Assembly (NCBI GenBank): GCA_045863295.1
Contig: BTWA01000009.1
Coordinates: forward strand, 127,106-191,105
DNA length: 64,000 nucleotides
From: Candidatus Hydrogenedentota bacterium
GTDB lineage: Bacteria; Hydrogenedentota; Hydrogenedentia; Hydrogenedentales; SLHB01
Direction of reading: 5' to 3'
In this document: positions 18,001-21,000 of the stretch, piece after piece
Layout: every line of letters starts with the position of its first letter
Position numbering within the stretch: the first letter of the stretch is position 1
Position numbers: made by a program

Positions 18001-21000
18001 TGCGGACCGGATACGCTGTCCATTATTTTGGAGAAAAGATCGTGATACCGCACAGCGCGCCTACCGTCGGCGAAGCAGAGGCCGCGGCCGCCGCTCGTGT
18101 CATACATTCCGGGCATCTGTCGCAGGGGCGGGAGGTGGCGGCCTTCGAATCAGAATGCGCCGCTTTCGTTGGACGCCGGTTTGCGGTTGCGGTGAGCAGC
18201 GGCACAAGCGCGTTGCACCTTGCCCTCGCCGCCCTGGAATTGCCCGCGCATTCGCGCGTGGCCGTTCCCGCATATGCCTGCGCCTCGTTGTCTACGGCCG
18301 TGCATCTCTGCGGGTTGGTACCGTCCTTCATGGATATTGCTGACGGGTACAATGCCGACATTGCCCATTGCCCTCCCGATGCGGGGGCCGTGGTCGTTCC
18401 TCATCTGTTTGGGTTGCCCGCCCGCACGCCAACGGCCCGGCTTTGGATCGAGGACATTGCACAGTCCATCGGCGGTCCCACCGGGCAGGGCGGCCTGTTG
18501 ACAGTTGCATCTTTTTATGCGACTAAACTGATGACCACGGGCGAAGGCGGCATGGTGTTGACGGACGACCTTTCGTTAGCGGAACACGTTCGGGATCGGC
18601 GCGACTATGACAATCGGGATGATTTTAAGACACGATACAACTACAAGATGACCGACGTGCAGGCCGCGATCGGGCGTGAGCAGTTGCGCCGGTTGCCCGG
18701 GTTCGTCGATCGGCGCCGCGACGTTGCAAGCCGCTATCACGAAGCATTTGCCGGATTGCCGGTGGTATGTCCGGGAGGAGAGGGGCACGTGTACTTCCGG
18801 TATGTCATTGCGACGGATCGCCGCGCCGCGCTTCAGCGGCACTTGACTGAAGCCGGCGTGGAATCCAAGCGGCCTGTGCATTGCCCGTCTCATCACTATT
18901 TTGGCGGTCAATTCCCCGAAAGTGATCGTGCGCATGAACGATGCCTGTCATTGCCGATCTATCCAACACTCACGGCTGAATCGAGGCAACGAGTCGTCGA
19001 AGCCGTGCGCCGGTTTTTCGAGTGACTGGCAAAAGCGCTTAGAGATCCACAGGCACGCCTTCTTTCTGAATGTGGACATTCCGGCATCCCGCGTCTTCCA
19101 GTCCGGACTTCAGTGCTTGGAGTGCTTCTTCTTCTCCATGGACCAGGAGAATCTTGCCGGCTGTATCCTTAAATCGCGATCCAAAGGCAATGAGTTCCGA
19201 CCGGCCCGCGTGTGCGCTTAGCGAGTTTAAGACAACAACTTCCGCACGGAGGGGTTGTTTCACTCCGAATATCTTGATGTCCTTTTCCCGCTCCACGATT
19301 CGGCGGCCCAGCGTGTGTTTGGCTTGGAAACCGATGATGAGAATCGTATTCCGTTCATCTGCGCAATTGTTCCGCAGATGGTGGAGGATGCGTCCATACT
19401 CGCACATGCCCGAAGCCGAGATGATGATGATCGGTTCATCAATCTCGTTGATTTCCATCGACTCCTCGACACTGTGCACGTAGCGAATCCGTTTTAATAG
19501 GAATGGGTCGCCCGCGTCCGACATCAGGTTGGTCGTGCCGTCGTCGAATAAATCGGTGTGCAGGCGGAATACTTCCGTGATGTTGACGGTCATGGGACTG
19601 TCGACGAATACGCGCATCGTGGGAATCTTGTTCTTGGACTCGAGCAGCTTCAGCGTGTAAATGAATTCTTGGGCGCGCTCAAACGCGAATGAGGGAACAA
19701 TGACCTTGCCGCCGCGATTGTACGTGCGATTGATGGTTTCCGCCAATTTATGTTCCAGGGTCTCGATGGGATCGTGGTCGCGGTTGCCATAGGTGCTCTC
19801 CATCATGACCACGTCGGCTTGGGCCGGTTCCCACGGGTCGCGCAGGATCGGCATGTTTTTGCGTCCGATGTCGCCGCTGAAGAGGAATATCTTACGGCTG
19901 CCGTTTTCCTCGATTTCCGTGTGCACCATGGCGGAGCCCAGCACGTGGCCGGCGTCCCGGTAGGTGATGCGCACACCGGGCGCGACCTCAAACGGCATGT
20001 CGTAGGGAATGCACACAAAGTGCCGCATAACTTCCTGCACGTCTTCTTCCGAGTAGATGGGGGGCACGAAGGTTTGCTTTTTCTTGGACAGCCAGCGGGC
20101 ATCGCGCTCCTGAATGTGGGCGCTGTCCAGCAACATGACAGAACATAGATCGCGCGTGGCTGGGGTGGCGAAGATGCGCCCTTGAAAGTTGTGGCGCGCG
20201 AGAATGGGGAGCGTGCCGCAATGGTCGATATGTGCGTGGCTCAGTACCACGCACGACAGTGTCCGCCCGTCAAAGGGCAGTTGCTTGTTCTTCTGAAAGG
20301 TAATGTCGCGCCGGCCTTGAAACATTCCGCAGTCGAACAAAACGCGATGGCCGTTTACTTCAAGCAGATGCTTGCTGCCGGTAACATCTTCCGCGGCCCC
20401 GTACGACGTAATACGCATTCCCGAATCTCCCCCGCTTCGATTGAACATCAACGTTGGAAGATATCACACCGGTTGGGGATATCTCGACGCAGGCGAACAA
20501 GCGCGACGGTGTGGAGCTGATGAGAGGTGATCGCAAAAGAAGGGGACCGGACCCGTGGGTCCGGTCCCTAATATCTGAACTCGCGCCGGGGAACACGGTC
20601 ACCCGACCGCAAGTTGTTTTAGAGACCCCGGAATTGCTTCCGAGGCCTCCGCGGAAGGAGAAACGCCACATGTGGCGCTGACCAACTAGATTGTAACACG
20701 CTTGTCAATAGAACGCAAACATCCTATTTGTGTTTATTTACAACTCCTTATGTAGCTTCGAGAAGTGTTTTTTTAACGGCATTTTGCCAACCGTTTACCG
20801 CCTTTTCGCGTTGTTCATTGTTCCATATTGGCTCAAAAACGCGATCCGGTTTCCATACGGATCGGAGCACGTCCTGGCTTTGCCAGACCCCCACGGCAAG
20901 GCCCGCAAGGAAGGCGGCCCCCTGTGCGGTGCTTTCAATGGTTACGCCACGGTGGACGGGACACCCAAGTATATCGGCCTGATGCTGCATCAGTAGGTTA

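Follow-up and report, generated by a model that had tools for sequence, protein, structure and literature searches.

A predicted stand-alone small RNA gene with an anti-Shine-Dalgarno linker in Hydrogenedentota, with copies in one Paceibacteria family

The window analysed here, a 64,000-nucleotide stretch of contig BTWA01000009.1 from a Candidatus Hydrogenedentota genome, contains on its minus strand what its sequence features identify as a stand-alone small RNA gene, undescribed before. Its upstream neighbour is a glpK-like FGGY carbohydrate kinase gene (20748..22229, minus strand; an ORF call with Pfam domains FGGY_N and FGGY_C), and its downstream neighbour encodes a beta-CASP metallo-beta-lactamase nuclease (19039..20418, minus strand; Pfam Beta-Casp and RMMBL) that is not conserved at this place. 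Between them, and likewise on the minus strand, a -35-like hexamer TTGCGT (20713..20718) stands 17 nt before an extended -10 box, TGTTACAAT (20690..20698), which is recognized by its conservation across loci and from which we infer a start at 20684 or 20683. The predicted RNA (20535..20684, about 150 nt in this long form) would begin with the P1 hairpin CGCCA-CAUG-UGGCG (20664..20677), followed by the linker UUUCUCCUUCCGC (DNA TTTCTCCTTCCGC; 20651..20663), the presumed seed, which carries the anti-Shine-Dalgarno (anti-SD) motif CUCCUU. A 13-bp stem, P2 (20621..20650), acts as the predicted terminator in a short form of the RNA and would be read through here into a lineage-specific 3' extension, made up of an A-rich linker and P3 (20578..20620; P3 20615-20578), and an intrinsic terminator of an 11-bp stem and U run (20535..20568) that a scanner flagged as well.

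The 150-nt sequence folds with a z-score of -5.9, and none of 200 shuffles did as well. In the fold model, the two C's of the anti-SD motif are predicted to pair with a 5' GG (unpaired probability of about 0.2), so the seed proposed in the genome-wide survey's note is complementary to AAGGAG but not wholly free. An alternative fold of the 95-nt prefix pairs the linker's CCGC with YGCGG of the extension. A generic promoter scanner found no promoter at the locus, and the promoter assignment is therefore based on conservation. The RNA is present in a single copy in its own genome. Rfam searches of the window stretch and 12 homologous loci returned nothing at the cut-off (best E 3.8), as the survey had reported, and a variant of 6S, SRP RNA or tmRNA was ruled out because each of these families is found at another place in the genome. 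The survey's statement that Hfq is missing also held, a search of this 96% complete genome giving no match (control, 5/14), and the RNA was thus rejected as a member of the Hfq-dependent sRNAs. Other RNA-binding proteins are encoded, namely CsrA, KhpA and KhpB/Jag. Protein sponges of the CsrB/RsmZ type carry several GGA motifs in loops; here the conserved GGAG sits inside P2, and a sponge of this type was rejected, CsrA itself being present.

BLAST, used without pre-selection by the core pattern, matched the RNA in 117 of 135 Hydrogenedentota genomes, including 74 of the 86 of high quality, in agreement with the earlier claim of a phylum-wide RNA; the ten genomes of family f8 gave no BLAST match. 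A model built from Hydrogenedentota only (R2) found no convincing copy in the 18 phylum genomes missed by BLAST or in the weak G024 (best score, 23 bits), and a later model (R3) returned from five of the missed genomes just a coding-region match, an unrelated terminator and a riboswitch-like leader. One exact linker 13-mer is present in each of the genomes G106 and G119, and viral contigs held no match to the RNA. To compare copies, we used 93 distinct loci, drawn from 90 stretches at BLAST matches and from phylum matches of a 16-nt core pattern (whose matches over the whole collection, among those listed, were mostly chance); one weak stretch without the linker was dropped and one Patescibacteria locus (L197) was set aside.

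Among these 93 loci, whose identity is partly by construction since they were found with the same query, the 13-mer linker is exact in 92, a 22-mer in 86 and the first 40 nt in only 48. The description of the first 44 nt as nearly invariant is incomplete: in paralogues the 5' leader and the P1 loop vary while the linker is kept. Invariance extends into both stems. The proposed sigma70 promoter, unflagged by the scanner, gained support from the other loci. By script, 92/93 have a TGnTAnnnN box at a distance of 34-38 nt upstream of the linker (at L040 the script chose a wrong site, and TGTTATACT stands at the usual -10 place by eye), and in 74/93 a TTG-led hexamer precedes this box by 17 nt. The commonest -10 variants are TACAAT (47 loci), TAAAAT (14), TATAAT (12) and TAGAAT (8). 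The RNA ends in P2 and a U run, at about 70 nt, in 40 loci and carries the 3' extension in 42, with 11 unclassified. From these sequences, the conserved core is about 70 nt, and the 150-nt form seen at this locus is a lineage extension.

The predicted stems are supported by covariation in the 63 of the 93 loci that could be aligned. Two-sided changes occur in 9/12 pairs of P2, which strengthens the survey's claim of covariation in the second stem, and in 1/5 pairs of P1, whose base is nearly invariant and whose loop is variable (97.8% of cells paired). Overall, 96.4% of cells were paired across the 63 copies, kin that are not independent, a value reached by none of 500 shuffles and exceeding all slid controls. 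In 20 long forms, the terminator shows two-sided changes in 9/11 pairs; the base of P3 is conserved, with two-sided changes in 1/4 pairs. Second copies are found in four families, in tandem at two loci, with P1 changed and the linker the same or nearly so.

The flanking genes, said to vary, are not wholly free to do so. Crude ORF calls at 89 loci place the upstream gene in the glpK cluster, as in the window, in 36; downstream, they give a convergent ORF in 60, one on the same strand in 23 and none in 6. Because the downstream gene is varied and mostly convergent, the RNA is not a leader, and a riboswitch or leader was rejected for want of a conserved downstream gene on the same strand. Promoter, 5' hairpin, linker, covarying second stem and terminator thus all bear out, at the level of sequence, the earlier proposal of an unannotated gene independent of its neighbours. 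As for transcription, one RNA run contained matching words (share 0.06), available as assembled contigs only; the two that cover the core represent copies from relatives and extend beyond the promoter, by 117 and 203 nt, and may therefore stem from DNA. A discrete transcript of 70 or 150 nt is accordingly a prediction from sequence.

The survey described the RNA as phylum-wide; wider searches showed that it is not restricted to this phylum. The first copy outside Hydrogenedentota came from the 16-nt pattern (L197/L213, in the Patescibacteria bin G135), and a 14-mer search of 101 relatives gave exact matches in seven genomes, in five of which the gene is complete, from promoter through P1 to the terminator stem, and in two of which the match is due to chance; G458 has two further copies with one mismatch each. 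With R2, the Patescibacteria copies score 28-58 bits, whereas unrelated loci containing the same core 16-mer do not exceed 23 bits. R3, which was built with six of the family's own genomes included, scored at least 41 bits in 8/43 genomes of one Paceibacteria family, two of them new (G472 and G477). Three more genomes of the family score weakly with R3, but their candidates combine the UCUCCUU core with a strong stem and promoter-like boxes; in one of these genomes (G446) the flanking genes are common to G465. UCUCCUU is kept in 12/12 Patescibacteria candidates, while divergent copies drop CCGC and P1 loops are much longer than in Hydrogenedentota, so that what the RNA has in common in both phyla is reduced to UCUCCUU, which is complementary to the SD. 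These copies lie at several different loci among ordinary genes (DoxX, ftsH, uvrB, tgt) on contigs of up to 221 kb. The carriers' taxon labels read Vogelbacteria, Paceibacterota or Patescibacteria, with G135 labelled Saccharibacteria by its submitter.

Beyond this family the searches returned little. When the stretches from two collection-wide pattern searches (59 and 83) were scored with the models, every match above 25 bits lay in a Hydrogenedentota-type or a Patescibacteria locus, although searches of this kind depend on a nearly exact core and may pass over more distant relatives. The divergent G135 copy, run by BLAST against 300 other Patescibacteria genomes, gave chance-level matches only, and R2 on a 151-genome sample of the order of G464 recovered only G464 itself. 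A contig labelled Rhodothermaeota holds a copy almost identical to that of Hydrogenedentota family f7, and its label may be wrong.

The two lineages differ in the ribosome that such an RNA would meet. In Hydrogenedentota, the 16S tail is normal, CACCUCCUUUCU, in 5/5 genomes, and AAGGAG, to which the linker is complementary, is the commonest upstream hexamer in the genome of the window (4840 crudely called genes). In the Paceibacteria family, CCUCC is absent from all seven 16S ends recovered (G443, G464, G461, G473, G465, G446 and G458), in line with a report that only 48% of Parcubacteria 16S rRNAs contain the anti-SD motif (PMC9297842); the parts of that paper available to us mention neither subsets of SD-led genes nor an anti-SD small RNA. 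Nevertheless, such genes exist. In 380 kb of the roughly 700-kb genome of G464, an SD was counted at about 8% of 325 starts, and AGGAG or GGAGG precedes 17/49 GC-rich ORFs versus 11/332 others (p=4e-10), mostly 5-9 nt from the start. Among 21 of its SD-led proteins scanned, 15 had no Pfam family. The linker's CCGC fitted the SD-led genes of G464 no better than other GC tails, with 15% of controls as good (one edge row carries a placeholder energy, which shifts all means alike). Another SD-led G464 gene (NosD-like) has named close relatives only in Patescibacteria.

We next consider whether the linker fits particular mRNAs. In the genome of the window, 8-mer complements of the linker occur in 96 start regions and 13 times inside genes, and 150 control seeds that keep CUCCUU with random flanks matched a mean of 60 and a maximum of 93 start regions. 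The excess does not extend to longer matches (22% and 7% of controls were as high for 9-mers and 10-mers, respectively), and seed energy largely follows how strong the SD is (r=0.71). Across the phylum there are 197 perfect 13-mer matches, own copies included, versus 86 for the reversed control, and 45 perfect 13-mer loci in other genomes that are not the RNA itself lie mostly inside coding frames. Pairing of the P1 loop CAU with start codons gained little support (2/40 shuffles were as good) and was set aside; the loop varies.

Candidate targets were tested for conservation in HU, glpK, a SurA-like gene, glnB and the families of GGAAGGAGA-ATG sites, with the porin family and a 13-nt MoxR-like site as further candidates. 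Matches to glpK (14 loci), the SurA-like gene (27) and glnB (30) were not conserved, and all three were rejected as a conserved target. A 13-14 nt match at the HU start was found in only 3/30 HU loci, all from one genus. Among 90 of the 353 GGAAGGAGA-ATG sites (24 genomes), only clusters of two or three were found, comprising an MFS transporter (by Pfam), sugar-binding proteins and oxidoreductases, names that come partly from the look of the sequence. In this small sample, then, all five candidate families failed the conservation test and no phylum-wide target was found.

The closest known design is that of Yfr1, a phylum-wide cyanobacterial RNA of 54-69 nt in which two stem-loops surround an unpaired ultraconserved motif, ACUCCUCACAC, that contains CUCC; published accounts also describe its loss from a few small genomes and paralogues that share the motif (PMC2190773, PMC2796815, PMC6778093, PMC6974561), and repression by covering the ribosome-binding site (PMC2190773, PMC2796815). 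Two stem-loops around a conserved linker and a short form of about 70 nt are common to both RNAs. In contrast, the linker here is UUUCUCCUUCCGC rather than ACUCCUCACAC, Rfam finds no match, model matches above 25 bits came from Hydrogenedentota-type and Patescibacteria loci and none from Cyanobacteria, one lineage has a 3'-extended form, copies occur in an unrelated symbiont family and the RNA is known here from sequence alone. From these features, the RNA is built like Yfr1 and is not a Yfr1 member. RsaE/RoxS of Bacillota are C-rich anti-SD sRNAs that do not need Hfq and expose several unpaired C-rich motifs in loops. This RNA shares with them an unpaired C-rich SD-complementary motif, of which it has one, in a linker, and no similarity appears in Rfam. 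In the literature searched (titles and abstracts, mostly of open papers; RNA-motif tables in supplements could hold the family), neither the RNA nor Hydrogenedentota as hosts of Paceibacteria was described, and a search by motif returned unrelated eukaryotic topics only.

Taken together, these results favor, at a probability of roughly 0.55, a Yfr1-like repressor that covers AAGGAG-type ribosome-binding sites in lineage-specific targets, every functional step of this reading being deduced rather than observed. A sigma70-type promoter would drive an Hfq-independent trans-acting small RNA, in which two stems hold out the short pyrimidine-rich linker; on several mRNAs the linker would pair with ribosome-binding sites of the AAGGAG type, thereby blocking 30S loading, with a set of target mRNAs that would differ by lineage and with KhpA/KhpB as candidate helpers. 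The Paceibacteria family would have acquired the gene from Hydrogenedentota and, most simply, would keep it to control its minority of SD-led genes. We counted in favor of repression the anatomy and covariation, the varied and mostly convergent downstream gene, the normal 16S tail, AAGGAG as top hexamer, the 8-mer excess at starts, the linker kept in paralogues, the UCUCCUU core across phyla and the Yfr1-like build. Counted against it were the failure to find a conserved target, the 9- and 10-mer matches within controls, the dependence of seed energy on SD strength, invariance reaching into both stems (more than pairing needs) and carriers in Patescibacteria whose 16S has no anti-SD and whose SD-led genes are few.

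Several of these adverse points would be expected if the RNA instead bound the ribosome or a protein, its linker imitating the 16S 3' tail or pairing with helix 45 to titrate or guide a ribosome factor: a conserved mRNA target was not found, the invariance includes the stems and the RNA is kept in a family whose 16S has no anti-SD. In both lineages, seven bases of the linker are complementary to helix 45 (about -13 kcal/mol; nine bases for the G443 copy), yet seven matching bases are what chance would give in an RNA of 1.5 kb, the pairing is mostly lost in the G458 copies (-9) and the helix-45 loop is buried in the mature 30S. Divergent copies also drop CCGC while keeping UCUCCUU, and neither the rRNA operon nor tmRNA, 6S or SRP offers the linker a strong site, leaving this explanation unlikely. 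The linker could also serve one or more dedicated RNA partners, either a sponge RNA (Yfr2 plays this part for Yfr1, and the two have nearly complementary motifs; PMC6778093) or the transcripts of small-peptide arrays, given that, in the window's own genome, the best intergenic complements of 12-13 nt other than the RNA itself lie in the gaps of two small-peptide ORF arrays (C74 and C3). The mostly coding location of the 45 non-self 13-mer loci, with no recurring non-coding partner among them, and a phylum-wide total of perfect matches that includes the RNA's own copies make such a partner very unlikely.

A role opposite to repression, in which the RNA supplies an anti-SD in trans and aids initiation on SD-led genes, above all in the Paceibacteria family, would account for the SD before GC-rich ORFs of G464 in a family whose 16S ends lack CCUCC. 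We know of no precedent for a trans-acting anti-SD adaptor, however, the anti-SD of Hydrogenedentota is normal, and SD-led DUF1559 genes (see below) occur also in G452, G473 and G457, incomplete genomes in which no copy of the RNA was found; we regard this role as highly improbable. Still further from the evidence, and in our judgment barely probable, is a cis element, which could be a mini-ORF on the plus strand (SD, 9 nt, ATG TGG CNN TGA) or could serve the downstream gene as leader or attenuator. The nuclease gene does follow on the same strand here, the long form has two alternative folds, an alternative CUCC/GGAG hairpin can be drawn and the plus strand reads ATG-TGG-CNN-TGA in 65/93 loci. 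Against these points stand the predominantly convergent and varied downstream ORFs, the alternative hairpin having no two-sided change, the loss of the mini-ORF in 28/93 loci, a few of which keep a GTG or TTG start, and the location of both promoter and terminator on the minus strand.

The SD-led genes of the Paceibacteria family also bear on where the RNA may have come from. One of them in G464 encodes a DUF1559 pilin-like protein with 31 BLAST matches among the proteins of the window's genome; its best relative is 60% identical, that relative and 5/7 taxon-named relatives are Hydrogenedentota, and the nearest Atlas clusters are commonest in Hydrogenedentota. Full-length DUF1559 genes were found in 5/43 genomes of the family (six genes, all AGGAG-led) together with a fragment, and in 0/5 other Patescibacteria tried; for a second such protein, 7/8 taxon-named relatives are Hydrogenedentota. 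In quick trees (30 rows, unrooted, with two long rows from the window's genome left out) the six genes are scattered among Hydrogenedentota paralogues, and a single clade was rejected (p-AU 0.004). Because the trees are unrooted and include no DUF1559 known from other phyla, identification of the donor is based on the similarity searches. This pattern points to several origins of the pilin-like genes, probably gained repeatedly from Hydrogenedentota. The RNA and a DUF1559 gene are found together in only two genomes, with no co-occurrence (p=0.59 for 11 carriers, 1.0 for 8 carriers).

On this sequence comparison, the family seems to have taken the RNA and some pilin-like surface genes from Hydrogenedentota, the direction of transfer being the presumed one. 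In Paceibacteria, genes from other phyla have been read as a sign of close association (PMC12455944); the donor table of that paper, as far as it was available, lists Omnitrophota, Bacteroidota and others, not Hydrogenedentota, and the items shared here are instead a regulatory RNA and repeatedly gained pilin-like genes. We consider it somewhat probable that Hydrogenedentota are the host of this Paceibacteria family. A bolder extension, which we think quite unlikely, is that a family living on Hydrogenedentota cells captured host RNA and pilin-like genes and passes the RNA or mRNA into the host, tuning host translation; since the symbiont's ribosomes have no anti-SD, the anti-SD RNA and the GC-rich SD-led genes would then be built for host machinery.

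A phylum-wide anti-SD RNA is of an already known kind; what is new is its retention in a symbiont family whose ribosomes have no anti-SD and whose genomes hold host-type pilin-like genes. For Hydrogenedentota, described as uncultured and globally spread, with no isolates (PMC11406978), the RNA is a candidate for a central riboregulator and offers a marker of 70 nt. Its presence in the second lineage is more unusual: it is kept in ultra-small bacteria whose 16S rRNA does not contain the sequence that the RNA imitates, beside host-type pilin-like genes, posing the question of why a genome with a ribosome unable to read SD sequences keeps both SD-led genes and an anti-SD RNA. The shared RNA and pilin-like genes also name a testable host for an uncultured Patescibacteria family.

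On the strand opposite the small RNA (window 20535..20684, minus strand), a perfect Shine-Dalgarno (SD) sequence is followed after 9 nt by ATG TGG CGC TGA (window 20650-20683, plus strand), and the pattern ATG-TGG-CNN-TGA is preserved in 65 of the 93 distinct Hydrogenedentota loci. Elsewhere in the window's own genome (G000), small peptide ORFs, often Trp-rich and with strong SDs, form arrays on contigs C74 (925-1775) and C3 (near 65550-65950), and the gaps of both arrays hold 12-13 nt complements of the small-RNA linker. The sole well-sampled family without the small RNA is f8 (G049-G058), which has small genomes, AT-rich leaders and, at the genes seen, weaker AAGG-type SDs; composition is a confounder here. 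A look-alike in Acidobacteriota (L583 and L635), consisting of a GNRA hairpin, UGUUUCUCCUUCC and a terminator, received no score from R2, the Hydrogenedentota-only model of the small RNA, and is possibly another anti-SD RNA.

The window also contains a Hydrogenedentota instance of the Acido-Lenti-1 RNA (Rfam RF01687; 4440-4485, plus strand, 45.6 bits) and a tRNA-Pro(GGG) gene (60800-60874, plus strand). Domain IV of the G000 SRP RNA (L229, C2:161545-161645) contains GGUCAGGUCUUGACGGAAGCAGCC and lacks the GGAA tetraloop that is usual in this domain.

In one Paceibacteria family, an insertion interrupts the 16S genes near the 3' end in genomes G464 (L736) and G461 (L783). G464 contains SD-led, GC-rich orphan genes (L725-L743), although its 16S lacks an anti-SD, and in three of its GC-rich SD-led genes a CCGC-NNN-GCGG hairpin immediately precedes the SD. 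A LOOT RNA (Rfam RF03000) lies in the same genome (L727:17300-17419, minus strand, 71.8 bits), as does an SD-led gene (L739:1129-7035, plus strand) for a 1968-aa protein whose first 1000 residues contain the Pfam domains SpvB, FG-GAP and TcdB_toxin_midN; this protein resembles a polymorphic toxin of the Rhs type. Finally, SD-led DUF1559 pilin-like genes of Hydrogenedentota type occur in five genomes of this family (L744-L748 and L773; G464, G452, G446, G473 and G457). The DUF1559 pilin-like genes of the family have several origins and may be a hint of its host or a case of surface mimicry.
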